Made by a program: the position numbers and the translations under genes. A DNA stretch of 64,000 nucleotides. Source: Prochlorococcus sp. AG-409-N21. GTDB lineage: Bacteria > Cyanobacteriota > Cyanobacteriia > PCC-6307 > Cyanobiaceae. The stretch spans positions 49,914 through 113,913 of the forward strand of contig QCKK01000002.1 in NCBI GenBank assembly GCA_003215415.1, written 5' to 3'. Shown here in pieces: positions 31,114 to 64,000 of this stretch. Every line of letters begins with the position of its first letter. Within the stretch, counting starts at the first letter, position 1. Below the pieces are notes generated by a model, which saw only the letters and a list, made by a program, of their open reading frames with translations, did no database searches and had not been told where the DNA came from.

Positions 31114-32262
31114 ATGAGCATGGAAAATCCTGAAAGTACTACTAGTAACTCGGAGACCAAGTTTAAGCCAAAGCAGATCTTTACAAAAGCTGCGGATCGT
31201 TGGCTTGCGAAAAATCGGTCTTTGGTACTAAGGCAAACCCCTATATGGGCTCAGAGTCTAGTTGGGATTGGAGTAAGCCTAGGAGGAATTGTCATTTTAG
31301 GAGCCTCACTTTTCCGCATTGATGAGGTCGTTACTGTATATGGACAACTAGAGTCATTAATTGGTCTTACTGAAGTAAAGACTCCATCAGGAGGAAAAGT
31401 CTCAGAAGTATTTTTTAGAGATGGGCAACTAGTAAAAAAAGGTCAGTTACTTTTAAGGTTTGATACAAGGCAAGCCTCATATGATAAGGAAACAATGACA
31501 AGACTAATTGAACTCGAAAAAAAAGATCTGACTGGCAGGCTTGATATTTTAAGGTCAAGAGAAGATGTATTAGAACAAAAACTCAAAACCAATAAGCAAA
31601 TTACATCATCACTGAAAGAACTTGTAGAGAAAGGCGCCTACCAAAGGGTACAGTACTTACAACAACTAGATACACTTTACGAAATCAAAAGCCAACTATC
31701 GAATGTTCAACTTGACATGAAGCGTACAAGGCTTGAATCTGAAAAGGCTCTGGGCCAATACAAAAATAGATTAAATAATGCAGACATCCAACTGCAATAT
31801 CAAACTGTATTAGCACCCGTAAATGGTGTTGTTTTTGATCCCAAAGTAGGTGTGGCAGGTGTAATCCAATCTGGTCAAACAATTTTAAAATTAGTGCCTC
31901 AGGAAGGCCTTAAAGCAAAAGTTGTTGTTGCAAATAAAGACATAGGTTTTGTAAAAACAGGTATGGAAGCAAAAGTAAGAGTTGATGCCTTTCCTTTTAC
32001 TCGGTATGGAGAGCTGGTTGGCAAAGTCACCAGCATTGGTGCTGATGCACTACCCCCAGATGAAAAAATGTCTTTTTATCGATTTCCTGTGCAATTAAGT
32101 TTAAATAAGTCTTACTTAGAAGCTGAAGGGGTGAAAATACCTTTAAGAAGCGGAATGGCGGTCACAGCCAACCTAAAATTGCGCGATAAAAGAGTAATTA
32201 GCTTAATATCAGACATACTGGTAGATCAAACTGAAACTGTAAAGTCAATACGACAACAATAA
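31114..32262 (+). CDS. HlyD-family type I secretion membrane fusion (periplasmic adaptor) protein
   Basis: One N-terminal TM helix (LVGIGVSLGGIVILGASLF), a long coiled-coil region, and lipoyl/beta-barrel motifs (GQLLLRFD, VLAPVNGVV). Confidence 0.85.
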   Translation: MSMENPESTTSNSETKFKPKQIFTKAADRWLAKNRSLVLRQTPIWAQSLVGIGVSLGGIVILGASLFRIDEVVTVYGQLESLIGLTEVKTPSGGKVSEVFFRDGQLVKKGQLLLRFDTRQASYDKETMTRLIELEKKDLTGRLDILRSREDVLEQKLKTNKQITSSLKELVEKGAYQRVQYLQQLDTLYEIKSQLSNVQLDMKRTRLESEKALGQYKNRLNNADIQLQYQTVLAPVNGVVFDPKVGVAGVIQSGQTILKLVPQEGLKAKVVVANKDIGFVKTGMEAKVRVDAFPFTRYGELVGKVTSIGADALPPDEKMSFYRFPVQLSLNKSYLEAEGVKIPLRSGMAVTANLKLRDKRVISLISDILVDQTETVKSIRQQ

Positions 32263-32285
32263 GCAAGCCAATTACCAAGATTAAA

Positions 32286-33080
32286 TTAGGAATTATCAGT
32301 AGTTTGAGATGATTTAATTTCTTGATCTAAAATCTGTTCGGTATTATCTTGATTCAAAATAGATTCCCCAGAATCATCTTTTTTATCTAATTCTTTACCC
32401 TTCTTTTTGGACTTTTTAGGGACGTAATCAGGTCCATCCAAGACCCCTCCAGCCAACATAGTATTTGCGACTTGCATTTTATTTAAAAATGCATTCATTA
32501 TTGGAAGCAAAGAAGAAGTTTGAGTCGCTGCAATCACAAGTTTCTGAGGCAATCCTTTCGTATGCATAACTGGAAAAGCAGTAATACAAGAGAAAATTTG
32601 GGAGATTCGTCCTATCCACCACTCAGGAGGAGCAAGAAGGATATGTGCATTACGTCCATCTGCAAGATTTTTAACTGCTGGTTGTAAGTCAATAACTAAA
32701 TAACAAAATCTTTTTGTTAAATCTCTAATGTCACAAAGAACTGCATCAATGCTGTCCATCTCAATGTGCTCGAGGACATCAAGACATGTCAATATATCTA
32801 CGGGTTTATCTGGCTTATTTTCCCAAGTTTTCACAGCTGGATCATATCCAAAAATCTCAATAGTGGATGGCAATTCCTTTCTTAAGCGCTCCACAAGTCT
32901 TCCTTTTCCTGTTCCATAGTCGAGAACTGAATTGCAAATTGTTAGCTCATGCATTCTTATTAGAGACTTCGGAAGACGTAGGGTCATCCCACCAGCATCG
33001 TCTCTACCTCCAAAGCCCTCATCGGATTCATGCAGAGCCTGATTAAGGGCTTTCTGCTCATCTGAAATAACCTTACCCAT
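32286..33080 (-). CDS. Class I SAM-dependent methyltransferase with K/D/S-rich C-terminal tail
   Basis: Motif I VLDYGTGKGRL and motif II ILTCLDVLEH. The tail is KKSKKKGKELDKKDD... Confidence 0.65.
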   Translation of the reverse strand: MGKVISDEQKALNQALHESDEGFGGRDDAGGMTLRLPKSLIRMHELTICNSVLDYGTGKGRLVERLRKELPSTIEIFGYDPAVKTWENKPDKPVDILTCLDVLEHIEMDSIDAVLCDIRDLTKRFCYLVIDLQPAVKNLADGRNAHILLAPPEWWIGRISQIFSCITAFPVMHTKGLPQKLVIAATQTSSLLPIMNAFLNKMQVANTMLAGGVLDGPDYVPKKSKKKGKELDKKDDSGESILNQDNTEQILDQEIKSSQTTDNS

Positions 33081-33095
33081 TGATGTAATGCCACC

Positions 33096-33917
33096 TTGCC
33101 TGGCATTCTTTCATGTATGACCATCGATACACCACAATCCGCTCCTCTTTTGGAACCAGATCCTGAAAAATGGCTCACTCCTCAGCGACTGGAGCAACTG
33201 AATCAACAAATAGAAGGAAGCAAGAAACTTCTTAAGCAAGCAGGCTTATTAAGGGCAGCACTTGGATATTGGGTTAGATGGGAGGTATCCCTTGAAGCCA
33301 ATTGGGGTCAAGATGAAGAAAACACAATCCTGGATGACTTAGAGAAAGACTGGCTTGAGAAAAGCAGTCAATCAGAACAAAAACAAACTTACTCGGACAA
33401 TGAATTGAGAGAAAAGTTAAGAGTGTCTCCAGGTTCACTTGTTTGGGCTCGGGAGCAATGGTCTCATCGGTTGGAATCAATCTATTTAGAACGAAAAAGT
33501 CAACTAGATCAAGCAAGTTGCAGATTAATTAGAGTTAGAGATAAAGGCATCGCACTAGAGCTGCATCACCGCATCAAAGCTGGCGAAACTTCCTTTGAGC
33601 AAGCTGCAAGAGAATATGGTCAAGGATCTGAAAGAAGAAATAATGGTCTTATACCAATGCAGACATTAGAAAAAATGCCCTTTGGTCTTGCGCCACTGCT
33701 AGTTCGATTAGAACCGGGCCGCTTAAGTCTCCCAATGCGCCTTGGGGAAGGTTTTTGTCTCGTTCAATTAGAGAGTTTTAAGCCCAGCCAATATGACAAA
33801 GCAACAGAAGAACTGCTTCTTGCAGAACAGCTGAGACTCTGGATCGATTCAGTGGTTAATTATCTCTTGTCTGTCTTAAGTTCAGAAGAACAAGCACAAG
33901 TTGAGACGAGCCATTGA
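33096..33917 (+). CDS. Parvulin-like peptidyl-prolyl isomerase domain protein (SurA/PpiC-like), no signal peptide
   Basis: The C-terminal half (RIKAGETSFEQAAREYGQGSERRNNGL...GRLSLPMRLGEGFCLVQLE) matches the rotamase pattern. The track start is TTG 33096, and an in-frame ATG at 33117 (MTIDTPQ...) is the more likely start. The stop overlaps the ABC gene start. Confidence 0.5.
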   Translation: MPGILSCMTIDTPQSAPLLEPDPEKWLTPQRLEQLNQQIEGSKKLLKQAGLLRAALGYWVRWEVSLEANWGQDEENTILDDLEKDWLEKSSQSEQKQTYSDNELREKLRVSPGSLVWAREQWSHRLESIYLERKSQLDQASCRLIRVRDKGIALELHHRIKAGETSFEQAAREYGQGSERRNNGLIPMQTLEKMPFGLAPLLVRLEPGRLSLPMRLGEGFCLVQLESFKPSQYDKATEELLLAEQLRLWIDSVVNYLLSVLSSEEQAQVETSH

Positions 33918-36901
33918 CGGCGAGCAAACAAGATCATTGGTTGCAAAGTTTGCAAAAGCAACTTGCGGCCCAAAGACCATTCCAACTCTTACCAGAGGAA
34001 GAGTTATCGGCCTGGTTGAATGATGCCAAGAAAATTAATTTCTCCACAGGCGAGCTGTTACTTCGACCTGATGAACTAAGTGACAGCATTTATTTGGTTC
34101 TCCAAGGAAACGTAAGACTTATCGGGATGGGGGATGGGGTTGATCTTTATGGGCAAATTTCTCTTGATAAACGAGGCCCAGGTCAACTTCTTGGGTGGAT
34201 AGGACTCCTAAGAGGTGAAGCTTGTGAATATGTTTTAGCCAGTAATGATGTTTTTGTATTAGGACTACCATCTGCAAGATTTATACATCTGTTTCTTAAA
34301 TACCCTGACTTTGCAAAATATTTCTACGAGCTAGAAAATCCGCAAGAAACTTATGTTGTTGCTTCTTCATTCGCAGATTTACAACCTAAGCATGAAGAAG
34401 CCTGGAAAAAAGAAATGCTTGACAGGATTAAACAAGCAAGAGCAACAAGCATTAACCCAGAAGATAAATTTGAATCACTTCTAAATCTAGAAGATGGTTG
34501 GAATTGGCATATTAGTACTCCTAAAATTCCTGGATATCCAACAGGGACAATAGTTAGAGAAAAAGACTTTCCTTTACCAAACCTAACAGGCTTCCAATTA
34601 CCCTATAGGTTGGTTTGTTTACCAAACTCACAAATACTAATTACTGAAGAAGATAATGAGGAACATATTATCAATGCAGTTGATATTGACCACAACCCAG
34701 TAGACCTTGAACAATTAGGCATTTTAGAAAAAGACCTTTTAGAGGCAGAAGACAGATTTCCTGTTGTCAGAGGTAAAGGAGCAGTCGGCCAAGCAGTAGC
34801 TGCTTGCGAAATGATATCTCTTTATCAAGAAGTACCTTTTCGGCGAGACAATGTACGCAGAGCTTTTGAAGATAATGAAAGGAGAGGGAAAGGAATATCA
34901 CTTGAATTAATGGGATTTGTATGTGAAGCACTTCAAATGAAATGTCAGTTAGGGCAAACAGAAGGGCAATTTATTAGTAGTGTTGAAAGCCCAGCAATTA
35001 TGGAACTTGATAACGCTTATGTTGTCTATTTTGGTATTAGTAAAGGCAAAGCATTAATAGCTAATCCTGAAAAAGGAATGCAACATATTCCTTTAGAAGA
35101 TATAAAAGAAAAATTAGGACATGAATTTCGATTTGTTTTACCAAGAAGAGTTTCTGCAACTCCTAAGACAAGATTTGGATGGAATTGGTTTACTCCGCTT
35201 TTAAAGAAATACAAAACATCCTTAGTCCTAGTCTTTGCGTCATCATTATTGGCACAATTATTTGGATTAGCGATACCATTATTACTTCAACAAATAATTG
35301 ATAAAGTACTGGCTCAAGGTAATTTAAGCAGTCTAAATATACTCGGCTCTGCCATGATTACAATGGCCTTATTCCAAGGGGTCTTACAGGCGCTAAGAAC
35401 ATACATATTTGTTGATACAACAGACAGAATGGATCTTACTCTTGGTACGGCCGTTATTGATAGATTACTTTCCTTACCATTAAAATATTTTGAAAAAAGG
35501 CCTGTAGGCGAATTAAGTCAGAGGCTAGGAGAATTAAATACAATAAGAGGATTCCTTACAGGAACAGCCTTAATAACGGTTTTAAATATAATTTTCGCCA
35601 TCATATATCTAATAGTTATGTTATTATATTCTCCATTTTTAACAGCAATAGCGTTAAGTACCTTTCCACTATATGTTCTATTAGTTTTTGGAGTAGCTCC
35701 AATTTATAAGTTTCTAATTAGAAAAAGAGCTGTTGCTCAAGCCAAAACGCAAAGTCATTTAATTGAAATTCTAGGTGGAATTCAAACAGTTAAAGCACAG
35801 CACTTTGAATTAACTGCCAGGTGGAAATGGCAAGATAGATATAGACATTTTGTATCTGAGGGTTTCAAAAGTACTGCGCTAGGCGCCACCGCAGGCGAAA
35901 TAGGCAAATTCCTAAATACTGTGAGTGGTTTATTAATACTTTGGGTTGGAATGATGTTAGTTCTTAAGGGTGAATTTAGCCTCGGAATGCTTATCGCATT
36001 TAGAATAATTGCTGGAAACGTAACTGGACCACTTCTTCAATTAGCAGGTCTTTACCAAGGATTCCAACAAGTATCTCTATCAATGGAAAGGTTAGGGGAT
36101 ATCATCGATCAAAATCCAGAATTACAAAATCCAGATGAAATAGGTCAAATTGCTCTCCCACCAATTAAAGGAGATGTAAGGTTTGAAAATGTAAGGTTCA
36201 GATTTGGGAAAGAAGGGGCATATCAACTTGATGATGTAAGCGTAAATATAGAAGCAGGAAACTTTGTTGGAATTGTTGGTCAAAGTGGAAGTGGAAAAAG
36301 TACTTTAATGAAATTACTTCCTAAGTTATATCAACCAAAATCTGGAAGAATCTTTATAGATGATTATGATATTGGGAAAGTTGATCTAAGCAGTTTAAGA
36401 AGACAAGTTGGAATTGTTCCCCAAGATTCACTCCTATTTGAAGGGACTGTTTCAGAAAATATTGCACTTAATGACCCACAAGCCACAACAGAAACAATCA
36501 TTGAGGCAGCACGAATAGCCTGTGCGCATGAATTCATAATGGGTCTAGGCCAAGGATATGCAACTCCTATCGCAGAAAGAGGTGCAAACCTTTCAGGGGG
36601 GCAAAGACAAAGGATTGCTATTGCAAGAACAATCCTTTCCAATCCTCAATTACTAGTAATGGATGAAGCAACCAGTGCTCTTGATTACGATACCGAGAGG
36701 CAACTATGCTTAAACCTTCAGGAATGGGCTGAAAAGCGAACTGTTTTCTTTATTACTCATAGACTCTCAACTATTCGCAATAGTGATGTGATTTTAGTTA
36801 TGCATGAAGGTCGTTTAACTGAAACAGGAAATCATGAGGCTCTTATGAATGAAGGTGGAAGATATGCAGTGCTTTATAAACAACAAGATTCATCAGCTTA
36901 A
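33914..36901 (+). CDS. Type I secretion ABC exporter: N-terminal cNMP-binding-like domain + C39-like peptidase domain + 6-TM domain + ATPase
   Basis: Four regions are recognisable. (1) aa ~22-135, cNMP-binding fold pattern (FSTGELLLRPDE...IYLVLQGNVRL...). (2) aa ~283-412, C39-like region. (3) A TMD. (4) An NBD with Walker A GQSGSGKST, signature LSGGQRQR and Walker B LLVMDEATSALD. The only start that preserves the domains is TTG, overlapping the upstream stop. Confidence 0.9.
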   Translation: MTASKQDHWLQSLQKQLAAQRPFQLLPEEELSAWLNDAKKINFSTGELLLRPDELSDSIYLVLQGNVRLIGMGDGVDLYGQISLDKRGPGQLLGWIGLLRGEACEYVLASNDVFVLGLPSARFIHLFLKYPDFAKYFYELENPQETYVVASSFADLQPKHEEAWKKEMLDRIKQARATSINPEDKFESLLNLEDGWNWHISTPKIPGYPTGTIVREKDFPLPNLTGFQLPYRLVCLPNSQILITEEDNEEHIINAVDIDHNPVDLEQLGILEKDLLEAEDRFPVVRGKGAVGQAVAACEMISLYQEVPFRRDNVRRAFEDNERRGKGISLELMGFVCEALQMKCQLGQTEGQFISSVESPAIMELDNAYVVYFGISKGKALIANPEKGMQHIPLEDIKEKLGHEFRFVLPRRVSATPKTRFGWNWFTPLLKKYKTSLVLVFASSLLAQLFGLAIPLLLQQIIDKVLAQGNLSSLNILGSAMITMALFQGVLQALRTYIFVDTTDRMDLTLGTAVIDRLLSLPLKYFEKRPVGELSQRLGELNTIRGFLTGTALITVLNIIFAIIYLIVMLLYSPFLTAIALSTFPLYVLLVFGVAPIYKFLIRKRAVAQAKTQSHLIEILGGIQTVKAQHFELTARWKWQDRYRHFVSEGFKSTALGATAGEIGKFLNTVSGLLILWVGMMLVLKGEFSLGMLIAFRIIAGNVTGPLLQLAGLYQGFQQVSLSMERLGDIIDQNPELQNPDEIGQIALPPIKGDVRFENVRFRFGKEGAYQLDDVSVNIEAGNFVGIVGQSGSGKSTLMKLLPKLYQPKSGRIFIDDYDIGKVDLSSLRRQVGIVPQDSLLFEGTVSENIALNDPQATTETIIEAARIACAHEFIMGLGQGYATPIAERGANLSGGQRQRIAIARTILSNPQLLVMDEATSALDYDTERQLCLNLQEWAEKRTVFFITHRLSTIRNSDVILVMHEGRLTETGNHEALMNEGGRYAVLYKQQDSSA

Positions 36902-36928
36902 ATTCAAAATGCACTTAGAGAGAATCAT

Positions 36929-37636
36929 ATGAAAGAGGCTTCAAATCTAGAGAATAAGAATGAAGAAGGAATATGTTTTTCATCCAGCTATCTTTCCTGG
37001 ATCACCCGTACAGAATTAAGTAATGGAATATTTAGACTAGATTCAGTATTAATTCATAGATCAAACAAACAAGAAGAAACTACCTTCGTTCTTTGCAGCG
37101 GGGTGCCTGCAGGTCGAATGTATGCTGACACTGGTCCTCTCCTAAAAACTCCAAAATATTTTTATCAATTCATAGGTGGGTCAAAGACGCATAAAATCAT
37201 TCGGACACCCGCTAAGGAAAGCAATCAAAAATTGTGCGAAGATTCTCACTCAGAAAATAAATCTATTTTCCTGGAATTGGACTTTCATTTGAATAAGAAA
37301 AAAGCAAAAGCAATCAAAGCGGATGCTTTAATTGAACTATCTTCTTTAAATACACCAGTAAATTTGTGCATTTACATAAAAAGAAATCATGAAAGCATTT
37401 ATATTGAATCTCCTTTAAAGCATTGGAATTTTCTTTCAAGAGAAAGAAAATGGCAAGTTGAAAGTGCCTCAATTCTTTGGCCCTCAAATCTTGATAATTT
37501 CTGCAAGAATGCAAATTCTTCTTTCTTAATACCCGTTTGCCTACATGCCAATAAATCTAATATGATAACAATTTCTGGTGAACGCATTAAATGCCATGAA
37601 ATAGCAGCTGACTTGTCCTTCTTAGAATTGCAATGA
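36929..37636 (+). CDS. Hypothetical protein (no recognisable motif)
   Basis: A 235-aa ORF, 27 nt after the ABC gene. Its stop overlaps the next start (ATGA), so it is embedded in the operon. Confidence 0.5.
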   Translation: MKEASNLENKNEEGICFSSSYLSWITRTELSNGIFRLDSVLIHRSNKQEETTFVLCSGVPAGRMYADTGPLLKTPKYFYQFIGGSKTHKIIRTPAKESNQKLCEDSHSENKSIFLELDFHLNKKKAKAIKADALIELSSLNTPVNLCIYIKRNHESIYIESPLKHWNFLSRERKWQVESASILWPSNLDNFCKNANSSFLIPVCLHANKSNMITISGERIKCHEIAADLSFLELQ

Positions 37637-38592
37637 ATTCACAATTAAATCCAACAAAGATTGCTTTCATTGGAGCAGGTTATATGGCTTCAGAACATTT
37701 GAAGGCATTTTATGATCTTCCAAATGTACATTTATCTGGAATCTTTACTCGAACAATAGACAAAGCACTGGCCCTAAAAAGTGTATATCCAGATCTTGAA
37801 ATATATGATTCAATTAATTCTTTATATTCAAAAACAAAAGCAGATCTTGTTGTAATTGCAGTGCCAGAATTGGCCTGCCTAAGTGTATGTGAAGAAGCTT
37901 TTATATACCCATGGAAATTGCTCATAGAAAAGCCTGTAGGCTACAACTTCTCAGAAGCTTTGAAAATTGAAATGCTAGCAAACGAACTAAATTCAGAAGT
38001 ATATGTCGCCCTCAATAGAAGATTTTATTCATCAACTATTCAAGCAATTAATAAGCTTAAAAATCTACAAAGCAATAGATTAATAACAATCTTGGATCAA
38101 GAAGATGCAATTGGTGCGCTTGCCTCTGGACAACCTGAAAAGGTCGTCAAAAATTGGATGTATGCCAATTCTCTTCACTTAATTGATTATTTCTCCATGC
38201 TTTGTCGTGGCGAACATGTCACAACAAAGATTATCGAGCCATGGGAGCCTAAGCGTCCCAAGCCAGTGATGGCTAAGCTTATATTCAGTTCTGGCGATAT
38301 AGGTATATATCAAGGAATCTGGAATGCGCCTGGTCCCTGGAGTGTAGCAATTTCAACAGAAGAATTAAGAATGGAATTAAGACCAATTGAACAACTATCA
38401 TTGCAACAAAAAGGGTCAAGATCTATAGAAATGCAAGCGATTGATCCTTTAGATAATAAATACAAACCAGGCATATATCGTCAAGCTGAAGAAGCGGTTA
38501 AAGCTGCAAGGAACATAAAGAATTCTCTACCAATGCTCGAGGACGCGAATAGAAGCATGTCACTAGTATCCTCCATATATCAAAGTCAATGA
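37633..38592 (+). CDS. Gfo/Idh/MocA family oxidoreductase (PtmF-like position in a NulO cluster)
   Basis: N-terminal Rossmann motif IAFIGAGYMASEH and EKP motif (LLIEKPVG). Confidence 0.75.
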   Translation: MNSQLNPTKIAFIGAGYMASEHLKAFYDLPNVHLSGIFTRTIDKALALKSVYPDLEIYDSINSLYSKTKADLVVIAVPELACLSVCEEAFIYPWKLLIEKPVGYNFSEALKIEMLANELNSEVYVALNRRFYSSTIQAINKLKNLQSNRLITILDQEDAIGALASGQPEKVVKNWMYANSLHLIDYFSMLCRGEHVTTKIIEPWEPKRPKPVMAKLIFSSGDIGIYQGIWNAPGPWSVAISTEELRMELRPIEQLSLQQKGSRSIEMQAIDPLDNKYKPGIYRQAEEAVKAARNIKNSLPMLEDANRSMSLVSSIYQSQ

Positions 38593-39272
38593 GTCTTCTT
38601 GCTGTAATTCCCGCAAGAGGCGGATCAAAAGGAATTCCTCGCAAGAACATTCGCCTTCTTAGAGGTAAACCGCTAATTGCTTACTCTATTGAAGCTGCTC
38701 TAAATGTAGATACAATTGATAGTGTTATTGTTTCAACTGAAGACGAAGAAATCGCTTCTATCGCAAAAGATTATGGAGCAGAAGTTCCCTTTCTCAGACC
38801 CAAAAAACTTTCATATGATGACACTCCTGGAGTAGACCCAGTTTTACATCTACTTGAAAAACTAAAGTCATTTAATGAGATTTTATTACTACAACCAACA
38901 TCACCTCTACGTACTATCGAAGACATTCAAGGGATTATTGAATTTAAGCGCAATAAAAAGTGTCCATCAGCAGTCTCAATTTGCGAGGTCTCAAAACATC
39001 CTTATTGGATGTTGAGACTTTCTCCTTCTGACCTATTAGAGCCATTCATTAGGCACCAATCATTATTCTCATTGCCAAGGCAGCAATTAGAAAAAGCATA
39101 CGTTCCTAATGGAGCTCTGTATATATGTGATATACCTTGGTTAAAAGCACAAGGTAATTTTGTTGGTCCCGAAACTCGTGGTTACTTAATGCCTACAGAA
39201 CGCTCTGTAGATATAGATACACAACTTGATTGGTTGTGGGCAGAGACACTCATGCATAAAGGTAAAGAATGA
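38589..39272 (+). CDS. neuA: Acylneuraminate (nonulosonate) cytidylyltransferase, NeuA/LegF type
   Basis: LAVIPARGGSKGIPRKNI and LLQPTSPLR motifs. Confidence 0.85.
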   Translation: MSLLAVIPARGGSKGIPRKNIRLLRGKPLIAYSIEAALNVDTIDSVIVSTEDEEIASIAKDYGAEVPFLRPKKLSYDDTPGVDPVLHLLEKLKSFNEILLLQPTSPLRTIEDIQGIIEFKRNKKCPSAVSICEVSKHPYWMLRLSPSDLLEPFIRHQSLFSLPRQQLEKAYVPNGALYICDIPWLKAQGNFVGPETRGYLMPTERSVDIDTQLDWLWAETLMHKGKE

Positions 39273-44165: not shown

Positions 44166-44203
44166 ACCTTCCATATACACTCCAACTGTGATGACTAAGT
44201 GAC

Positions 44204-45568: not shown

Positions 45569-45573
45569 TTTTC

Positions 45574-50445: not shown

Positions 50446-50472
50446 TTAGATGAATCTGAACTGACTGACTAA

Positions 50473-53399: not shown

Positions 53400-53456
53400 G
53401 CAGCCTTTCTAAGTGACAGTAAGTAATGTTAGTTTCTCTCTGGATGGGAAACAGGC

Positions 53457-55202: not shown

Positions 55203-55234
55203 GTGCTTCCTATTTACCCTCGATTCAACCTGTT

Positions 55235-56299: not shown

Positions 56300-57921
56300 A
56301 ATCAAGATCATTAGACCTCGCATCAAGACTTGCTTTATTTCTTAATAATGAAAATTTAAATAAAGAAGGTGAGACTTCTCGCAAAATGGGTAGGTTTATT
56401 GTCACTCAAAGTTTTACCGATGCCCTAAGAAAGTTAAGTAAGAATGAACCAATATTTTTAAAAAGAGATTTACCAAGTAAGGAACTTCGGCAAGGAAAAG
56501 TTAGCTGGGAAGCGTTATTTGCAGGTGATATAAATCTAGAACCATTAGCAGCTGAAAGATTATGGGGAGATCAAAGGAGATATAGCTTAATTGGTATTAC
56601 TCATACTCTTAGTACGCCAGCCCCTTTAAGAATTTTACCAAAATTAAATTCTGCAAATTTACATACCTGGGATGCTTTGATCTGCACTAGCCAATCAGCA
56701 AAATCAGCAATTCAAACGTTTCTTGAGCATTCAGAAGAACTATGGAAGCTAAGAGGTGGAAAACCTGCAAAGAGATTTCAAATGCCTGTGATACCTCTTG
56801 GAATAGATATAACAAGTTTTCAACCAAAAAAAAGCAAAAAAGAAGCACGAATAAAGCTACAAATACAAGAGGAAGCATTTGTAGTTTTATGGACAGGTAG
56901 ACTAGAACTCCATTGTAAAGCTCACCATATTTCTACTCTTCGTTCTTTAGCACTTGCTTCTAATGAATATCCTGATCGAGCATGGGTTTTATTGATGTAT
57001 GGAACAGCAGTAATGTCGAATATTCCAAATGCAATTTATGAAGCAGCAGCACATATCTGTCCAAATGTAGAAATACGAATTTTAGATGGTCATAATATTC
57101 AGTTAGGAGAATTAGCAAGAGCTGCAAGTAATGTTTTTCTTAGCCTAGTTGATTGTCTACAAGAAACATTTGGTCTAACACCCGTCGAAGCAATGGCTTC
57201 TGGACTACCAGTCATTGCAAGTGACTGGAATGGATATCGAGATACAATTGTTGATCAAAAAACTGGTTATTTAATTCCAACATATACCTATCAAGAAGGT
57301 TATGATAATCCTTCCTTACTACAAATGGCTTGCTATGACAAATTTCTTGATAGCGTAAGTGCAAAGGTCACAAATCAAATAAGTGTGGACATTCAAAAAG
57401 CAAGTCAAGCATTAGTTGAGCTGGCAAAATCATCAGAAAGAGCGGTTGCAATGGGTCATCTTGGTTCTCAAAGAGTAAAAACTTACTATGACTGGCATAT
57501 AGTTTTTAAACAATATGAAGATCTACTCAATGAGCTAGAAGACAGAAGAAGAATTGCAAGAAAAGATGAGAACTTAAAAACTTTTGAAAAATTAATGGCT
57601 ATTCCTTCACTCAGTCGAGCATTCCAAGCTTGGCCAACCAATACCATCTCCCCAAGCATCAAATTAAGAGTATGTAAGGAAACGAGTATTAAGTCTCTTG
57701 ATAAATATCTATGTCTCTCAATGAATGAAATCTATTCTGATTACCTACCCAATAAATCTGTTATTAGAAATCTATTTAACTATATACATTTAAATGGCCC
57801 AATAAGTTTTGAAGGATTACAAAAATCAAAGAATATAGATCTTAAAGCGAAAGACTCTAATTTAATAGGAGCAACTCTGGCTTGGCTCATTAAACATGGT
57901 TTCTTAGAGAAGGAAGTATGA
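56296..57921 (+). CDS. Glycosyltransferase family 4 with C-terminal extension
   Basis: [37 protein letters not shown] is the GT4 EX7E motif. The start overlaps the previous stop. Confidence 0.8.
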
Positions 57922-58955
57922 TCCAGCACGAAAGTAATCAAAAGATAAGATACTGGCTAAGTTGCCATCCAGATATAACAAGGCCAATGGGTGGAATAAA
58001 GCAAATTCATCGTCTGGCAGAAGCCCTAAATAGTTGTGGCAGAGAGGCAACATTAATTCAAGAGAATAAAGATTTTCATCCAGGCTGGTTCACAAGTAAT
58101 GTGCCGACAATATCTTTTGTCGAATGGAGTGAAAGGAATGATCTAAATAATCAGAAAGATATAATGGTACTTCCAGAAACTTTTATACCAAGTCTTAGCA
58201 AATATCCCCAAAAGCTTCCAACAATAATTTTCAACCAGAATGGTTGCTATAGCTTTGGGCTAAACAAAAAAGATGATGGATTTCCAAAAGACCCAAGCAA
58301 AGTTATTGCCCTGTATAAGAATCCCCAAGTAATTCATACGATTTGTGTCTCACGTCATGATGAAAATCTTTTAATTGATGCAATGGGTTTAAATAGAAAT
58401 CGTGTTAGTCGATTAATAAATGCAATTGAAATTGACAATTTCTTCCCAACTCAGAAAAAGTTTGCTCAACTAGCTTTCATGCCAAGAAAAAATAGATACG
58501 ATGCAATGGTGGTTAGTTCTTTAATAAGAGAGCAATCTAAATTTAAAAATTGGTCATTAATACCAATTCACGGATTACCTCAAAATAAAGTAGCTGATAT
58601 CCTTCAAAAAAGCATAGGATTTTTATCATTTGGCCATCCTGAAGGTTTTGGTTTACCTCTTGCCGAAGCTGGTGCTTGTGGATGTGCACTTATTGGATAT
58701 ACAGGACTAGGTGGAAGAGAATTGTTCCAAATCGCCCAAGAATCTGGAGTTGGATGGCCAATAGAATTTGGTGATTGGCAAGGCTTTATACATGCAATAA
58801 AAGAACTTGAAAATAAAATGAATCAAGAACCACAAGGCATCAAACAATCACTGCAAAATTTATCAAACAATATTCGAGAAAGATATTCACCCCAAGCAAT
58901 GATTGAAAGTGTCTCGAATTCATTACCAATCTGGGAAAGTCAAATAAAAGATTAA
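57918..58955 (+). CDS. Divergent GT-B (GT4-like) glycosyltransferase
   Basis: [21 protein letters not shown] resembles the GT4 donor-binding region. The ATGA overlaps the upstream gene. Confidence 0.55.
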
Positions 58956-60139
58956 TGTTTTCACCATTCAAATCCGCTCTTGATCTTAATAAAAGACTCC
59001 GCTTCAACCGTCTTTATTGCTCACCTTTAGAACTTGGTGCTTGGGCACTTTTAGAGCCTGCTGGCGTGCAGAACCATGCACCTCAACTTTGTTGGATAAG
59101 AAAAGATTTGCTGGGTTGTGTCTGGATGGCGGGGGGACAAGAAGGAACTTCAGGCATGGGAATTATGTTCAGTACCTTGAAAAACAATGCAAGTGGTTGG
59201 AAAAAGCCAAAACTAATTTCGCAAGACCCCTCTCGATCAGAGCAGAATCCTTTATTATTTATTACCAATACGGATGGGAAAAACCGACTTCAATTAATTC
59301 ATACTGCCCAATGTGTTCGACAAAATGATAATGATCTAGAAGAAGATGAAGCATTCTCCATGCAATGGACTGCATCACTGCGTCAACAAAACCGAGCCAC
59401 AAATCAAAATCGTTGGAGCAAGGTGTCAGATCTAGTCGATTATCCAGCATTTTGTCGACATCCACCTCATTGTAGGAAAGATGGGAAATGGCTGTTACCT
59501 ATTTACAAAAGCCTCGCGAAGGGTGGAGCTTTTGGGCATGACCATTCTGAAATTCTCATACTCGAAGCCAATGGAAAGGCAACTAATGAGGTAATAGAAA
59601 TTCCTGAAAGTACTGGAAGAGTTCATGGATCAATTGTCTTATCAGCAGATGGCTCTAAACTTCTGCAATTTTTCCGCAGTCGATTAGCGGACCGAATATA
59701 TAGATCAACAGGAACATTAGATGGCATGCATTGGAGCAAGCCAACTCCAACAAACTTGCCAAATAACAACAGTTCTATACAAGCCTTACGACTTACTTCT
59801 GGCCGACTAGCAATGATTTTCAATCGATTTAGTCTTGAAGAATTTCCCGTCACTGAAGACAATTGGGGTGATGCTCAATGGCCCAGAACAAGATGGCCCT
59901 TAAGCATTGGACTGAGCAATGACGATGGAGACACTTGGCCATGGATTAGAGATATAGACTATGGTTATGGGTTTAATGGAGAAGCAAATTGGATGCTAAA
60001 TGGCCAGCTTGCATATCCAACACTTATTGAAGGGATACCTGGAGAATTACACATCGCCTATTCATGGGCAGGGCGACAAGCTATCCGATATATGTGTATA
60101 AACGAAAGAGAGATTATGGGTTTACCATTTAGTATGTAA
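58955..60139 (+). CDS. Sialidase-fold (BNR/Asp-box, BNR_2-like) protein without signal peptide
   Basis: An Asp-box (SNDDGDTW), a second degenerate box (SADGSKL), and the typical C-terminal pattern YPTLIEG..GELHIAYSW...IRY of exo-alpha-sialidase-like beta-propellers. Confidence 0.6.
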   Translation: MFSPFKSALDLNKRLRFNRLYCSPLELGAWALLEPAGVQNHAPQLCWIRKDLLGCVWMAGGQEGTSGMGIMFSTLKNNASGWKKPKLISQDPSRSEQNPLLFITNTDGKNRLQLIHTAQCVRQNDNDLEEDEAFSMQWTASLRQQNRATNQNRWSKVSDLVDYPAFCRHPPHCRKDGKWLLPIYKSLAKGGAFGHDHSEILILEANGKATNEVIEIPESTGRVHGSIVLSADGSKLLQFFRSRLADRIYRSTGTLDGMHWSKPTPTNLPNNNSSIQALRLTSGRLAMIFNRFSLEEFPVTEDNWGDAQWPRTRWPLSIGLSNDDGDTWPWIRDIDYGYGFNGEANWMLNGQLAYPTLIEGIPGELHIAYSWAGRQAIRYMCINEREIMGLPFSM

Positions 60140-60259
60140 AAAAATTAGAATAGTTATTAAACCAATTTGTATATGCAAACAAGTATTTAAAGTATGATTA
60201 GATTTAAAATTTAAAGTTGATATCTATCAACTATTCTCAATTCACCATCCGAATACTAA

Positions 60260-61090
60260 ATGGATTCTTCAACGTCAGAAAATGTACTTTTAATTACTTT
60301 AGATTCCTGTAGATATGACAGTTTCAAAAAAGCAAATGTAAAGAATCTACGTTCGATAGGACCACTTCATAAAGCACACTCACCAAGCTATTTCACTTAC
60401 GGAAGTCATGCAGCGATTTGGATGGGATTTACTCCTGGAATCGCAAATACAAAACAACCTTGGTTAAATCCAAAAGCCGGCAAACTATTTCGAATGGCCA
60501 ATGCAGGTTTTGTAGGTGATGAAGCAGACGGAATTCAATTAAGTGGTTCTAATATTATTGAAGGTTTTAGCAAGTCTGGTTACCTAACTATTGGGACAGG
60601 AGCCGTTGGATGGTTTGATCCATCAACAGAAACCGGTGCTGTCTTAGGTCAACCCTTTGATAAATTCTTCTATCCTGGAAATACTTGGAGCCTTAAAAAA
60701 CAAATAAATTGGTTAAATATACAATTTCTAGAAAACAATAGCTTAAAGCCAATGTTCGTTTTCTTAAATATTGGTGAAACGCATGTTCCGTATTGGCATG
60801 AAGAAGCAAACTGGCCTAGAGATCCTTCACCATGTATTCCTTTTGGTGGCAAGCAATGTTCAAGAAGAGAAAGTAGGAAACGTCAAATTGCTTGCCTTGA
60901 ATGGGTAGATTTACAACTAGAGGAACTAATAAAAAGATTTTCCCTAGGCACAATAATCGTTTGCTCAGACCATGGAGATTGTTGGGGTGAAGATGGACTC
61001 TGGGAACATGGCATAAGTCACTGGGCCACCTTAACTGTTCCTTTGCTAATGAAAGTAAAAGGTCAGTCAGTAACTAATGATCCCAAGTGA
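60260..61090 (+). CDS. Alkaline-phosphatase-superfamily (sulfatase/phosphodiesterase-like) protein
   Basis: The N-terminal LLITLDSCRYDSF and C-terminal VCSDHGDCWGEDGLWEHG match the metal-site pattern of the AP superfamily. There is no clear CxPxR sulfatase motif. Confidence 0.5.
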   Translation: MDSSTSENVLLITLDSCRYDSFKKANVKNLRSIGPLHKAHSPSYFTYGSHAAIWMGFTPGIANTKQPWLNPKAGKLFRMANAGFVGDEADGIQLSGSNIIEGFSKSGYLTIGTGAVGWFDPSTETGAVLGQPFDKFFYPGNTWSLKKQINWLNIQFLENNSLKPMFVFLNIGETHVPYWHEEANWPRDPSPCIPFGGKQCSRRESRKRQIACLEWVDLQLEELIKRFSLGTIIVCSDHGDCWGEDGLWEHGISHWATLTVPLLMKVKGQSVTNDPK

Positions 61091-61835
61091 TCCCATATTC
61101 TCGTTCAATCCATTTATAAGTGTAATCTAATTTCTCTCTTATTTTTTTTCTCAATTTCATGCTTACGGATTTTGCCTCACCTCTCCCTGGGTTTAGTTTG
61201 GATAATGGGCCAGTAAAAGTAGTTTGATTTACACCTAGAAAAACAAGCAAATCATGCCAAACCATAGATGGATTATTAAACAAATCCTCACTTTTCAAAA
61301 CTAAAAGTTGTCTTCGTTTAAATAACCCTTTATAGCGCCGCAACTGCTCATCATATTTACTTCTACTCAAATAGCTATGTTTTTGATAGCTATAATTGTT
61401 GCCATTATTCTGTACAATGATGGAGTCTGTACCCTCTAAACGATCAGCCTCTGCTTCCAAGGCACTTTCTAGATCAAGTGATTCATATCCATTTCTGCAT
61501 GCATGAAAATATTGAGACAAAGTCCTATCAACTGGGTCACGTAAAAGTGCAATAAGTAAGCAATTAGGCAAGGTATTCTTTATACGGAATGGGCATTGCT
61601 GATGAAACAAATAAAAAGGTGTAATATCTCCTCTGAGCTGTCCTGGACTTGACTCCAAATAATGATTTGCATACCAATCAAGACCTTTGTTGTAATTCTG
61701 GCTAAAAAAATGAACTTCTTTTATATCAGGCAAAAATATATCGAGATGTCTATTAAGCAAGTGATGCAGGCTAGTTGTCCCTCCCTTCTGGGTCCCTAAA
61801 ACTAAAAAATGAGGCAATGGGAGGCCAAGTCTCAT
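61074..61835 (-). CDS. PAPS-dependent sulfotransferase
   Basis: 5'-PSB loop GTQKGGTTSL and 3'-PB motif LLRDPVDRTLSQY. The ORF extends to a GTG at 61913, but that would overlap the divergent gene by 21 nt, so ATG 61835 (MRLGLPLPHF...) is preferred. The 3' end overlaps 60260..61090 by 17 nt. Confidence 0.8.
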   Translation of the reverse strand: MRLGLPLPHFLVLGTQKGGTTSLHHLLNRHLDIFLPDIKEVHFFSQNYNKGLDWYANHYLESSPGQLRGDITPFYLFHQQCPFRIKNTLPNCLLIALLRDPVDRTLSQYFHACRNGYESLDLESALEAEADRLEGTDSIIVQNNGNNYSYQKHSYLSRSKYDEQLRRYKGLFKRRQLLVLKSEDLFNNPSMVWHDLLVFLGVNQTTFTGPLSKLNPGRGEAKSVSMKLRKKIREKLDYTYKWIEREYGITWDH

Positions 61836-61892
61836 GCCAAGCTTTCCTTCTAGCCAACGTATGCTGGTATTGGTTTTATATCGCTGCAAAAG

Positions 61893-62876
61893 ATGTTTGT
61901 AATTGGCTGTCACCGATCAGGGACTTCTCTACTAGCAAACATTCTCACTCAAGCACAGGCCAGATGCCAAGATGACGTCAACAATCAAGTCAAACGGGAA
62001 CTACTAAGCCCACAAATTGATAATCCAGGCGGTTTTGCTGAGAGTCAACAGTTAGTTGAAGTGAATGAAAAAATCTTTGATTGGCTCGGAATTGATTGGC
62101 AACGACCGATTTTGCACAAAATAAACTGGCAAGACTCTGATTTATTCCCAAAGTTATTCAATTATAGATATAGCTTGAAATATTATGCATTAAATTTTAA
62201 TTGGATTGATAAAGATCCTCGCTTATGTATTACATACCCTGCTTATATTCACTTATTACTTCGCAGGGTACGAATCGCTGCAATTATTCGTGATCCTATA
62301 GAAGTTTCTAATTCACTTTATGCTAGAGACGGCTTGGCATTCTCCCATGGATTGATGATTTGGTTTCTTTATAATAAACATCTTTCTATACATTTGGCTG
62401 AACAGCAAGATGCCCTTATTTCCTATAATGATCTATTATGTATGAATGAATCCACAACATTAAAGCTATCAGATTTAATTTCTGGAGAGCAAAACAACAA
62501 ATATTATTCAGAGCTTGTAAAAATCCTGGAAAAAAACATTAAGCCTGAATGGAGGCGTTCTGCCAAAAAATTAGAATTAAAATCATTGCATCAAGAAAAT
62601 TCAAATGAAATTGCTCGATATTGCATGAATTGCTACAAAGCTTTAGAAAAGGAGCAGTTCTCTATCTCTAAATATAAAGATATATTTTCACAGATGCCCG
62701 ACATAATGTTAGATGCATATTCAAGATACGCTTGGCGAGCACCAAAAACGAATCCAGAAAATCAATCACAATTAAACAATCTACATGATGATGAAAGATT
62801 GGAAGAATTAAAAAACTCAACCAGCTGGAAGATCACTGCTCCATTAAGGTGGCTGGGCAATAAAATCAAAAATTAG
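61893..62876 (+). CDS. Sulfotransferase family protein
   Basis: 5'-PSB-like GCHRSGTSLL at the N-terminus and 3'-PB-like IIRDPIEVSNSLY. Confidence 0.75.
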   Translation: MFVIGCHRSGTSLLANILTQAQARCQDDVNNQVKRELLSPQIDNPGGFAESQQLVEVNEKIFDWLGIDWQRPILHKINWQDSDLFPKLFNYRYSLKYYALNFNWIDKDPRLCITYPAYIHLLLRRVRIAAIIRDPIEVSNSLYARDGLAFSHGLMIWFLYNKHLSIHLAEQQDALISYNDLLCMNESTTLKLSDLISGEQNNKYYSELVKILEKNIKPEWRRSAKKLELKSLHQENSNEIARYCMNCYKALEKEQFSISKYKDIFSQMPDIMLDAYSRYAWRAPKTNPENQSQLNNLHDDERLEELKNSTSWKITAPLRWLGNKIKN

Positions 62877-62885
62877 GGAATACTT

Positions 62886-63986
62886 ATGCTACAGATTTTA
62901 CGAGAATGGCCTCCAGGTTTTGGCGGAATAGAGCGTGTTGCCCACCAGCTTGGGATCGAATGGGAGGCAAAAGGGAACTCTTGTAGTATATATAGCCTAA
63001 ATAAATCTAAAAATATTAATTACGAGAATGAATCAATCAATATTCCTTATCGAAGAACACACTTGTCAAGTTTAATACTAGGCAAACTAATAATTCCATT
63101 GCCTAGTAGAAAACTAATAGAATTAATTTTCTCAAAAGAATCTATTCACGCTCATCTTCCATGCCCTGGCGTACTGAGTATAATTGTCCTTTCTTTCATA
63201 ATAAATTCAAATCGAAAAATAACAGTTCATTGGCATTCTTTTTTGAAAATAGAACCTTCCATAAAAGGTTTGCTAATTGATATATACCAAAAATGTGCGC
63301 TAAATTGTATCAAACGGATGAGATTAGTTGTCACAACTTCTCCTACATTAATAAAAGAATTAGAGAAAGCTGGTTGCAATAGATCCAATCTACATTTATT
63401 ACCATGTTGCCTAGATGAACGTTACGAAAGGGATGCGTTATCAATTCAATACCGTAAGCCATTAGATTCTCGCCAATTAAGAGTAATCTTTATCGGCAGA
63501 CTTGATAGCTATAAAAGAGTTGATTGGCTTTTTGAATCTCTGACTCATTTAAATATTCCTTGGAAACTTGATGTAATCGGTATTGGACCAGACCTTCAAA
63601 AATTAAAAAGAATTACTGCAAATTATCCAGTAAATTTTCATGGTCCCCTTAACGAAAGGCAAAAGCTTAATCAGTTATCTATCGCTGATTTGCTGGTTTT
63701 ACCTTCAGATCGATGTAACGAGGCATTTGGCATTGTTCAACTGGAAGCAATGGCTTCTGGGATTCCTTCTCTGGCTTTCTCTTGGCCAAGATCGGGCATG
63801 AATTGGGTTTCCAAATTACCTTCACTTAACTGGTCTCATAATCCATCCGAATTAAGTTCAGTTATCAGGAGGATCGCTTCAGATCCTGATTTACTTCTTG
63901 TCCTAGGGAAAGAAGCACGAGATAGATATGAATTGTTTTTTTCACGGGCGATATGGAAAAAGAAATTTAAAAGATTGGTGGAATGA
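62886..63986 (+). CDS. Glycosyltransferase family 4
   Basis: NEAFGIVQLEAMASGIPSLAF is the EX7E region, with GRLDSYKRVD upstream of it. Confidence 0.8.
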   Translation: MLQILREWPPGFGGIERVAHQLGIEWEAKGNSCSIYSLNKSKNINYENESINIPYRRTHLSSLILGKLIIPLPSRKLIELIFSKESIHAHLPCPGVLSIIVLSFIINSNRKITVHWHSFLKIEPSIKGLLIDIYQKCALNCIKRMRLVVTTSPTLIKELEKAGCNRSNLHLLPCCLDERYERDALSIQYRKPLDSRQLRVIFIGRLDSYKRVDWLFESLTHLNIPWKLDVIGIGPDLQKLKRITANYPVNFHGPLNERQKLNQLSIADLLVLPSDRCNEAFGIVQLEAMASGIPSLAFSWPRSGMNWVSKLPSLNWSHNPSELSSVIRRIASDPDLLLVLGKEARDRYELFFSRAIWKKKFKRLVE

Positions 63987-64000
63987 AAATTAACTTTTCA

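Follow-up and report, generated by a model that had tools for sequence, protein, structure and literature searches.

Does this island of a picocyanobacterial genome encode one machine that makes, glycosylates and secretes a surface protein, or are its secretion and sugar genes neighbours with separate destinations? The question is raised by a 64,000-nucleotide stretch of Prochlorococcus sp. AG-409-N21 (contig QCKK01000002.1 of GenBank assembly GCA_003215415.1, positions 49,914 to 113,913; the whole analysed stretch is called the window here, and coordinates are those of the window unless a locus is named). It carries a type I secretion system (T1SS), a repeat protein that is the candidate cargo of that system, a pathway for the nonulosonic acid (NulO) legionaminic acid (Leg), and numerous glycosyltransferase (GT) genes. 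How susceptible Prochlorococcus and Synechococcus are to phages and grazers is held to depend in large part on their surface islands, most of whose products are unknown. A first-pass annotation, made from the window alone, had proposed that these genes form a single integrated machine for a NulO-glycosylated, possibly sulfated, T1SS-exported surface protein. That proposal is partly supported by the analysis reported here: a set of soluble GT and tetratricopeptide repeat (TPR) genes, together with the T1SS and the repeat protein, forms a conserved module, which on balance we lean towards reading as a secretion-plus-glycosylation system for the repeat protein, and the Leg genes appear to be a separable unit beside it.

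A conserved T1SS, cargo and glycosyltransferase module

The T1SS genes encode a HlyD-family periplasmic adaptor (31114..32262, +) and a 995-amino acid HlyB-type ATP-binding cassette (ABC) exporter (33914..36901, +), and the candidate cargo is a 551-amino acid, acidic, Cys-free protein (50473..52128, -) with 13 GxG(N/D/A)D turns and a conserved C-terminal domain of ~150 amino acids. Do these genes travel as a unit? All window proteins were compared by tblastn with eight related loci, and this comparison defines the module. The loci anchored on the cargo include those of Prochlorococcus AG-409-J19 (L002, 68% cargo identity) and Prochlorococcus GCA_003280095 (L003, 38%), two from metagenomes (L004/L005, 45%) and one on an ENA metagenome contig (L006, 46%); those anchored on the TPR-GT protein TPR581 are from Prochlorococcus marinus GCA_001632075 (L013), Synechococcus sp. 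YX-04-1 (L014) and GCA_047286345 (L015, 2.6 Mb).

The T1SS, the cargo and the soluble GT/TPR set occur together in eight independent loci, with cargo identity as low as 29-33% and with the neighbouring genes replaced, and the linkage that the first-pass annotation had drawn among these three elements is supported. The conserved core consists of the HlyD adaptor, a methyltransferase (MT264), a peptidyl-prolyl isomerase (PPIase) and the ABC exporter; of GT4_3b reading into the cargo gene; and of the divergent genes for TPR581 and TPR354, usually followed by GT4_541 and GT1_345. A BNR_2 protein, a short sulfatase-like protein and the sulfotransferase ST279 join this core in L002, L013 and L015. 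The ABC/PPIase pair, the GT4_3b-cargo pair and the TPR581-TPR354 pair lie within ~10 kb of each other in L003, L004/5, L006, L013, L014 and L015, and this holds for the cargo-anchored and the TPR581-anchored loci alike. Identity of the ABC exporter to that of the window is 58-67% across the loci. Metagenome scans that started from the ABC exporter gave either no contig or contigs shorter than 5 kb.

The exporter and its coupled genes

The adaptor has one N-terminal transmembrane segment, matches HlyD_3 (70.1 bits) and HlyD_D23 (40.2 bits) above the Pfam cutoffs and TIGR01843 below its cutoff (171.9 against 208.65 bits), and is kept in L004, L006, L014 and L015. The exporter contains cNMP_binding, Peptidase_C39, ABC_membrane and ABC_tran domains; its residues 295-991 align to residues 11-705 of E. 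coli HlyB (7sgr/8dck; phmmer against PDB, E 3.6e-148), and its best NCBIfam match is the HlyB-type T1SS model TIGR01846 (667.6 bits, under the 725.55 cutoff). The T1SS adaptor and exporter called in the first-pass annotation are thus both borne out. The position of the catalytic Cys of C39 peptidases, which is Tyr9 in HlyB, is Gln293 here; the orthologues of L003 and L004 have Glu or Ser there, and the three divergent orthologues share no Cys close to it. Because the catalytic Cys is absent from all three, the C39-like domain is predicted to be non-catalytic; a degenerate C39-like domain is a hallmark of T1SS exporters of repeats-in-toxin (RTX)-type cargo with C-terminal signals. About 290 extra N-terminal residues, including the cyclic nucleotide (cNMP)-binding domain (33914-34780), precede the C39-like domain in all orthologues, which suggests from sequence that export may be gated by a cyclic nucleotide.

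The gene just upstream encodes a parvulin-like PPIase-domain protein (Pfam) without a signal peptide (33096..33917, +); its end overlaps the start of the ABC gene by 4 nt, and it is kept wherever an ABC gene is found, the short contigs L009-L011 excepted. The coupling of a cytoplasmic PPIase to the ABC exporter of a T1SS is unusual, and the protein might be a cargo chaperone. Between it and the adaptor gene lies MT264, an S-adenosylmethionine-dependent methyltransferase by Pfam (32286..33080, -), which is conserved with the T1SS block in the longer loci. In L006 (13881-19392) the exporter is called as separate genes for a cNMP protein (198 amino acids) and a protein with the C39, transmembrane and nucleotide-binding domains (790 amino acids), and the PPIase, HlyD and TPR581 genes appear fragmented; this could reflect decay of the module or assembly or frameshift errors.

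The candidate cargo

The most likely start codon of the cargo gene is the ATG at 52128, as the aligned family members share the N-terminus MAYYGIPSAG. The protein has a pI of 4.05, contains no Cys and no His, and is 14% Gly and 22.5% Ser plus Thr. Its 13 turns are spaced mostly every 21-23 residues around a local consensus SSTLxGGxGNDxIxL, and there are only five loose matches to RTX nonapeptides, none of them in tandem. The whole protein reaches 29 bits on HemolysinCabind (cutoff 23) with no single stretch significant, and the family profile weakly matches an RTX block of CyaA (E 8.5e-5). A sequence of this kind would suit a T1SS substrate that binds Ca as a beta-roll or beta-helix. The first-pass annotation had described a Cys-free GxGND-repeat protein bracketed by two paralogous GT4 genes, and that description holds for its content and for its neighbours (below); its start at 52170 most likely has to be moved to 52128, and the repeats have the wider spacing just given, with a weak RTX signature.

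Grouped at 90% identity, the cargo family has no fewer than 164 clusters, almost all with members of ~540-590 amino acids, and no protein of the size of SwmA, the surface protein of Synechococcus WH8102 discussed below, is found among the 120 family members listed. The nearest named relative is that of Prochlorococcus sp. AG-409-J19 (68% identity). A genome scan with an alignment of eight cargo sequences gave a single species representative. A scan for promoters and terminators around the cargo gene gave fewer sites than shuffled controls and is uninformative.

Glycosyltransferases and TPR proteins around the cargo gene

The cargo gene is flanked by GT4_3a on its downstream side (PF12000 and GT1 families; 49010..50254, -) and by GT4_3b immediately upstream on the same strand (52224..53399, -). 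GT4_3b has this position in every locus, and GT4_3a occurs without Leg genes in L015 and L013. Both contain PF12000 and they are 28% identical (E 2e-42).

Divergent from GT4_3b is the gene for TPR581 (53457..55202, +), which has an N-terminal TPR region and a C-terminal GT9-like region of the GT-B fold. The Pfam TPR matches lie inside residues 6-130 and there is no transmembrane segment. An AlphaFold2 model built from a 66-sequence alignment (pLDDT 92.6, pTM 0.86) has helical repeats at residues 14-275 and two Rossmann-like lobes at 300-580. The catalytic half (54309-55202) has no Pfam match in six orthologues and no PDB sequence match when used as a profile. At E <= 1e-3 it retrieves 28,111 representative clusters, and many of these GT9-like relatives are proteins of 1000-3000 amino acids in which two to six copies alternate with TPR blocks; distant members reach Pfam Glyco_transf_9 (41.7 bits, cutoff 22). 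By these sequence matches the catalytic half appears to represent a very large, poorly annotated TPR-GT family, and the TPR-GT fusion of the first-pass annotation is upheld by both the structure model and the GT9 matches of its relatives.

TPR581 is followed by its conserved partner, the all-TPR protein TPR354 (55235..56299, +), and by GT4_541 and GT1_345 (56296..58955, +), which are overlap-coupled to TPR354 and kept in most loci. Of the island proteins encoded between 20.7 and 64 kb, HlyD and the ABC exporter alone are clearly membrane proteins, in agreement with the earlier statement that none of the GTs looks membrane-embedded. TPR581, GT4_3b and two GT4-type enzymes are, from sequence and conservation, probable cargo-directed glycosyltransferases. 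The donor of TPR581 is probably not Leg in general, because its orthologues occur in five loci without adjacent NulO genes.

Beyond these genes lie the sialidase-fold BNR_2 protein, which has no signal peptide (58955..60139, +; conserved in L002, L013 and L015), and, at 60260..62876, the short sulfatase-like protein (+), the sulfotransferase ST279 (-) and a second sulfotransferase, ST327 (+). The sialidase-fold protein and the sulfotransferases named in the first-pass annotation are confirmed; the sulfatase-like protein (60260-61090) has 276 amino acids and no signal peptide, and L002, L013 and L015 keep it alongside the module.

Proposed function of the module

How might these parts work together? 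We propose that the cargo would be O-glycosylated in the cytoplasm, where a TPR domain would recruit the protein and the GT domains would build a short glycan, that the glycosylated cargo would then be exported by the HlyB/HlyD T1SS, and that, once outside the cell, it would fold with Ca2+ and serve as a surface or a secreted protein. In this lineage the Leg cassette would have entered a variable slot that separates the cargo operon from the ABC gene; the sugar it makes may be used to cap the cargo glycan or may enter a polysaccharide exported by Wzm/Wzt. We infer the export and the glycosylation of the cargo, and likewise the sulfation and the acceptor of Leg, from the gene content and linkage described here.

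A number of observations weigh against this proposal. No TolC-type gene is present in the 64-kb window or in the 10 kb to its right, and TolC-type genes are often unlinked to T1SS genes. The RTX signature of the cargo is, as judged from its sequence, weak and non-canonical. In a Foldseek search of the PDB the best matches of full-length TPR581 combine TPR and GT-B parts, which in itself favours the proposal; the top match, however, is a capsule polymerase, the Cps3D capsule multienzyme of Actinobacillus, and the others, the plant O-fucosyltransferase SPINDLY and the OGT enzymes of humans and bacteria, are matched with E values of 1e-10 to 1e-8 but with TM-scores of 0.2-0.3, a similarity that is probably driven by the TPR half. 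We do not read these matches as assigning TPR581 to GT41. GT9 enzymes are classically lipopolysaccharide (LPS) heptosyltransferases, and soluble GT4 enzymes would be just as typical of O-antigen synthesis that depends on an ABC transporter. The identities to the window of TPR354, GT1_345, GT4_3b and TPR581 track that of the cargo (Spearman rho 0.83-0.94), which fits co-evolution but is confounded by phylogenetic distance. In L004 genes for RgpF, a GT4 and Wzt adjoin the HlyD gene. To our knowledge, the export of pre-glycosylated proteins by a T1SS is poorly documented, SwmA (by inference) aside. Lastly, the Wzt/Wzm, RgpF, rmlACDB and kds genes of the same island are an ordinary alternative acceptor route for the GTs, and it is to these that we now turn.

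Are the sugar genes those of a polysaccharide island?

The first 20.6 kb of the window is housekeeping sequence (clpX, clpP, tig, asd, dapA, RNase J, tilS and uvrB, and also lysC, holA, cbiC, mutS and ribH). The island begins directly after ribH at a tRNA-Gly(GCC) gene (20667..20738, +; ARAGORN and Rfam), and an Rfam scan of the window found nothing else. Its other edge lies outside the window. Logan contig SRR7040925_6 (L001), which is identical to the window over 4295 of 4295 overlapping bases, carries the island ~6.5 kb past the right edge of the window, where it closes at secA (L001 11164-14010, window-equivalent ~70869), which is followed by cysE. From tRNA-Gly to secA the island is thus ~50 kb long and the window covers the larger part of it; bracketing by a tRNA and a core gene is typical of picocyanobacterial genomic islands. 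secA also adjoins the module in Synechococcus YX-04-1 (L014).

Beyond the window L001 carries genes for a GT4, a Wzt-type ATPase, a Wzm-type ABC-2 permease, a 507-amino acid GT4 (-), a GT2 (-) and an RgpF-family protein (-). The Wzt gene (L001 5387-6121; ABC_tran) and the Wzm gene (L001 6118-6927; ABC2_membrane, six transmembrane segments) lie at window-equivalent positions 65092-66632 and so begin 1.1 kb past the right edge; their best NCBIfam matches are Wzt/RfbE and Wzm/RfbD, both far under the equivalog cutoffs (203.7 against 400 and 91 against 380 bits). The block that leads to them, and on to RgpF and secA, begins inside the window with GT4_366 (62886..63986, +).

At the left end of the island the order is a GNAT gene, the dTDP-rhamnose genes rmlA, rmlC, rmlD and rmlB (21258..24785, +; Pfam), and then genes for 3-deoxy-D-manno-octulosonate (Kdo) together with a GT8. 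The rmlACDB genes probably serve the Wzm/Wzt/RgpF polysaccharide branch. The Kdo segment (24902..29571; Pfam and NCBIfam) contains kdsD, kdsC, kdsB (-), the GT8 gene (-), a 149-amino acid open reading frame (ORF; -) and kdsA, and kdsA, kdsB, kdsC and KpsF/GutQ score above their NCBIfam cutoffs. The kdsD/kdsC/kdsB/kdsA pathway is thus complete inside the island, beside rmlACDB and upstream of the T1SS block, from which it is separated by two small genes (an ORF without a family match and a methyltransferase). No counterpart in any related locus compared was found for unk149 (28085-28534), unk300 (30136-31038) or unk235 (36929-37636), nor for MT167 (29622-30125) or the GT8 gene (27390-28094).

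The absence of polysaccharide export genes had been used in the first-pass annotation as an argument for a protein acceptor. Inside the window the absence stands, as no island protein encoded there matches a polysaccharide-export family. The argument built on it does not survive, as genes for Wzt/Wzm and RgpF, with three more for GTs, follow just to the right. The first-pass annotation had itself named a complete export set just downstream, accounting for all of the GTs, as a result that would refute its proposal; the Wzt/Wzm exporter goes part of the way, and it may serve some or all of the GTs.

The chief alternative to the secretion-plus-glycosylation reading is therefore an ordinary polysaccharide island, in which all of the GTs and the Leg, rml, kds and sulfotransferase genes would build a lipid-carried O-antigen or capsule that Wzm/Wzt would export. 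The glycan would contain rhamnose, Leg and Kdo and would possibly be sulfated, and the T1SS and an unglycosylated repeat protein would be a separate system, co-located by the accumulation of surface genes. The genes 1.1-6.4 kb to the right of the window (Wzt/Wzm-type, RgpF, GT2 and GT4s) belong to the same island and speak for this, as do rmlACDB and kdsABCD at its left end, the L004 arrangement and the LPS-directed history of GT9 enzymes (above), and the separation of the Leg cassette from the T1SS module in YX-04-1 (below). Leg is, moreover, a common constituent of O-antigens and capsules (bioRxiv 10.1101/2022.03.25.485807). Several features of the loci count against it. The GT4_3b-cargo pair and TPR581/TPR354 stay with the ABC exporter in all loci over a range of cargo identity of 29-68% while the neighbouring sugar genes are swapped, and the compact module of L014 has no Wzm/Wzt within 21.8 kb. 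TPR-GT fusions are typical of protein-directed GTs. The island contains no initiating phosphoglycosyl transferase or ligase: from tRNA-Gly to secA there is no WecA/WbaP-type or Wzy_C-type protein and no further multi-transmembrane protein, and such genes may be elsewhere in the genome. Weighing these points, we regard the polysaccharide alternative as the main rival, though as less likely than not.

The legionaminic acid cassette as a separable unit

Is the Leg pathway part of the module? The cassette has 11 genes (37633..48065, +), among them those for a GFO/PtmA-like oxidoreductase, a CMP-NulO synthetase, LegB, LegC, NeuD/LegH, NeuB/LegI, NeuC/LegG, a WbuX amidotransferase, a WbuZ-like HisF/HisH fusion and a protein with CBS and NTP-transferase domains (PtmE/LegX). 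LegB (TIGR04180, 513.3 bits, cutoff 475), LegC (TIGR04181, 494 bits, cutoff 420), NeuD (TIGR03570, 181.1 bits, cutoff 160.8), NeuC (TIGR03568, 372.2 bits, cutoff 235.9), NeuB (TIGR03569, 435.6 bits, cutoff 399.65) and WbuX (TIGR03573, 358.9 bits, cutoff 203.2) all score above their cutoffs. The CMP-NulO synthetase meets Pfam CTP_transf_3 and scores 163.7 bits on the PseF model (under its 205.7 cutoff), and the HisF/HisH fusion is above the HisH cutoff and reaches 229.8 bits on WbuZ (under 299.7). The PtmE/LegX-like gene (two CBS domains and NTP_transferase) was assigned by its architecture, as it has no curated model; proteins with CBS and nucleotidyltransferase domains of this type have been suggested to mark the Leg route that depends on GDP-sugars (bioRxiv 10.1101/2022.03.25.485807). 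The predicted product of the cassette is CMP-Leg, probably in an acetamidino form, the latter suggested by the presence of WbuX and the HisF/HisH fusion.

The first-pass annotation had placed the ABC gene in a same-strand, coupled block that runs into this pathway, and the spacing agrees. Exactly at the junction of the ABC gene and the Leg cassette lies unk235 (235 amino acids; 36929..37636, +; no Pfam or NCBIfam match), which follows the ABC gene after a 27-nt gap; from there to 48065 all genes are on the + strand, with overlaps of 1-16 nt or gaps of 5-38 nt. At the far end of the cassette is the convergent gene for unk311 (311 amino acids; 48078..49013, -), which shares 4 nt with GT4_3a where the cargo operon ends. 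The predicted structure of unk311 is confident (pLDDT 92.3). It has no Pfam or NCBIfam match, no recurring Pfam match across 38 family members at E <= 10, no PDB sequence match and no significant PDB fold neighbour (best E 0.011). A comparison with viral models gave neighbours of moderate similarity (best E 8.6e-5, TM 0.5), and weaker ones among them are annotated MptE-like and GT29; the MptE-like pfam01973 domain is the sialyltransferase-like core of the Maf flagellin NulO-transferases (PMC11339370). Homologues of unk311 are present at L002 13069-13968, L016 10001-10924 and L017 307-1230, and in every context seen (the window, L002, L016 and L017-19) the gene is convergent with the Leg cassette, next to PtmE. 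From its model and its constant position, unk311 is a candidate NulO transferase or modifying enzyme.

The comparison of loci separates this unit from the module. The Leg cassette and unk311 are next to the module in the window and in its closest relative, L002, alone. In L003, L004/5, L006, L014 and L015 no Leg gene separates the ABC gene from the cargo gene or adjoins either of them, and none is found within the 21.7 kb of L013 that were examined. In YX-04-1 a collinear 11-gene cassette with unk311 (L016; 53-80% amino acid identity) is located beside thiC, ruvB and smpB, and ~50 kb, with secA and housekeeping genes, separate it from the T1SS/cargo module. The place that the cassette takes in the window is a variable slot: in L003 (11998-20512) it holds genes for a WbmS-like protein, AsnB, DegT, SDR, DAO and GFO proteins and a UDP-sugar dehydrogenase, in L004 (11982-12974) a lone GT1, and in L006 (11794-13809) and L015 (6038-6925) ORFs without a family match. 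In L015 the ABC gene is immediately next to the row of GT4_3a, a 295-amino acid ORF, the cargo gene and GT4_3b. Because five loci lack it and YX-04-1 has it ~50 kb away, the Leg cassette is not an obligate part of the module. Gene order thus indicates that the cassette and unk311 make up a separable unit, that the coupling of ABC and Leg genes is a lineage-specific juxtaposition, and that the run from one into the other reflects the insertion of a mobile cassette into the variable slot.

These results bear directly on the complete form of the first-pass proposal, in which Leg from CMP-Leg would be attached in the cytoplasm to the repeat protein, the glycan would also be sulfated, and ABC/HlyD would export the product as a surface layer. 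In its favour are the position of the cassette, which is overlap-coupled downstream of the ABC gene and has the cargo operon on its other side, the 4-nt overlap of the Leg-linked unk311 gene with GT4_3a, the weak MptE-like (Maf core) and GT29 structural neighbours of unk311, the ability of TPR-GTs of the FlmG class (below) to use Leg, and the same arrangement in Prochlorococcus AG-409-J19. The five module loci without Leg genes, L013 and the distant YX-04-1 cassette all speak against a NulO pathway that is integral to the system, and that part of the proposal finds no support in the form in which it was made. In addition, none of the 47 members of the unk311 family is on a contig as long as the L013 or L015 record (about 840 kb and 2.6 Mb), which suggests that those genomes lack unk311, and unk311 itself has neither a significant PDB neighbour nor a Pfam match. 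Wzm/Wzt offers another destination for Leg, and the sulfotransferases may act on something other than a protein-linked glycan. We consider the complete proposal improbable.

It is very improbable that ABC/HlyD is instead a peptidase-containing ABC transporter (PCAT) type exporter of bacteriocins or other peptides with double-glycine (GG) leaders, with the repeat protein not its substrate: the Peptidase_C39 Pfam match (25.3 bits) and the NHLP-bacteriocin ABC models (406-436 bits, under their cutoffs) point that way, but the best match is full-length HlyB including its C39-like domain, no GG-leader peptide gene is evident, the exporter is in strict synteny with the repeat protein, and a C39-like domain that is predicted to be non-catalytic, with Gln, Glu or Ser at the position of the catalytic Cys in three orthologues, argues against a GG-leader peptide exporter, which we therefore rejected.

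Relation to known systems

The exporter resembles the E. coli HlyB-HlyD-TolC/HlyA system in that the ABC protein is homologous to HlyB end to end, including the C39-like domain, in its HlyD adaptor, and in a cargo that is acidic, Cys-free and rich in Gly and Asp. It differs in the extra N-terminal region of ~290 residues with its cNMP-binding domain, in the coupled PPIase and methyltransferase genes, in the lack of tandem nonapeptides in the cargo, and in a locus without a HlyC acyltransferase or TolC gene.

Among cyanobacterial proteins the closest parallel is SwmA of Synechococcus WH8102, which is likewise a Gly/Asp-repeat protein of Ca-binding type and for which glycosylation has been reported. 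ABC/HlyD-type and glycosyltransferase genes are reportedly needed for the localisation of SwmA (McCarren and Brahamsha). Prochlorococcus is non-motile, unlike the Synechococcus strains that bear SwmA. Glycosylated RTX surface proteins of cyanobacteria include SwmA, oscillin and Sll1951 (PMC3034196); SwmA has been detected in the exoproteome (PMC4949707), and, with a mass of 130 kDa, it is confined to clade III of Synechococcus (PMC7522525). Compared with it by description only, the cargo studied here is smaller, at 551 amino acids, its family is found in Prochlorococcus and in other Synechococcus, and its T1SS and GT genes are contiguous with it.

TPR581 may be likened to FlmG of Caulobacter and Brevundimonas, a 596-amino acid protein with TPR and GT-B parts that binds flagellin through its TPR domain (PMC7591256). 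Enzymes of the FlmG class transfer pseudaminic acid (Pse) or Leg onto flagellin in the cytoplasm before export, and their genes adjoin NulO genes (PMC7591256; bioRxiv 10.1101/2022.03.25.485807). TPR581 has the same size and two-lobed architecture, and the likeness drawn here is one of architecture. It differs in that its acceptor would be a T1SS cargo and not flagellin exported by the flagellar type III system, in that it is found in loci without an adjacent NulO pathway, and in that its catalytic half is GT9-like; we therefore treat FlmG as a functional analogy and not as a demonstrated relative.

The island as a whole shares with Wzm/Wzt O-antigen or rhamnan systems the ATPase/permease pair, soluble GT4 and GT2 enzymes, RgpF and rmlACDB; unlike in those systems, there is no initiating transferase or ligase in the island and the exporter lies outside the conserved T1SS/cargo module. 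The Leg genes correspond to the pathways of Campylobacter jejuni and Legionella pneumophila in having LegB, LegC, an N-acetyltransferase, a hydrolysing 2-epimerase, a NulO synthase, a CMP-synthetase and PtmE/LegX, as well as a WbuX-type amidotransferase and HisH/HisF-type genes, and they differ in their picocyanobacterial host, in the inclusion of unk311 and in behaving as an 11-gene mobile unit.

The component kinds are thus all known. What is new is the conserved combination across picocyanobacteria of a T1SS, a PPIase, a methyltransferase, a repeat-protein cargo, a TPR-GT9 protein and GT4s, together with a variable sugar slot beside the cargo gene and the Leg-linked orphan unk311. A literature search found no paper that links Prochlorococcus with legionaminic acid, with an RTX/T1SS cargo or with the module.

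Implications

The analysis separates a conserved, testable unit from swappable sugar cassettes and from a polysaccharide exporter. The polysaccharide alternative, if correct, would make this an O-antigen-type island of the ordinary kind, next to which a secreted protein is encoded. Should the repeat protein instead be a secreted glycoprotein, SwmA-like surface proteins would extend beyond motile Synechococcus, FlmG-like protein glycosylation would extend beyond flagella, and the exchange of cassettes beside the cargo gene would be a simple mechanism of surface diversification.

A bolder form of the secretion-plus-glycosylation reading can also be stated, and we offer it tentatively, as a rather unlikely speculation: Prochlorococcus and marine Synechococcus would share a flagellin-style cytoplasmic O-glycosylation that has been repurposed for a T1SS surface protein, carried out by a FlmG-like TPR-GT9 protein and GT4s, with a glycan that is diversified among strains by cassette exchange in the slot beside the cargo gene (in this strain, acetamidino-Leg) and with unk311 as a new NulO transferase. 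Were this so, the most abundant phototroph would have a strain-variable glycoprotein coat relevant to its recognition by phages and grazers.

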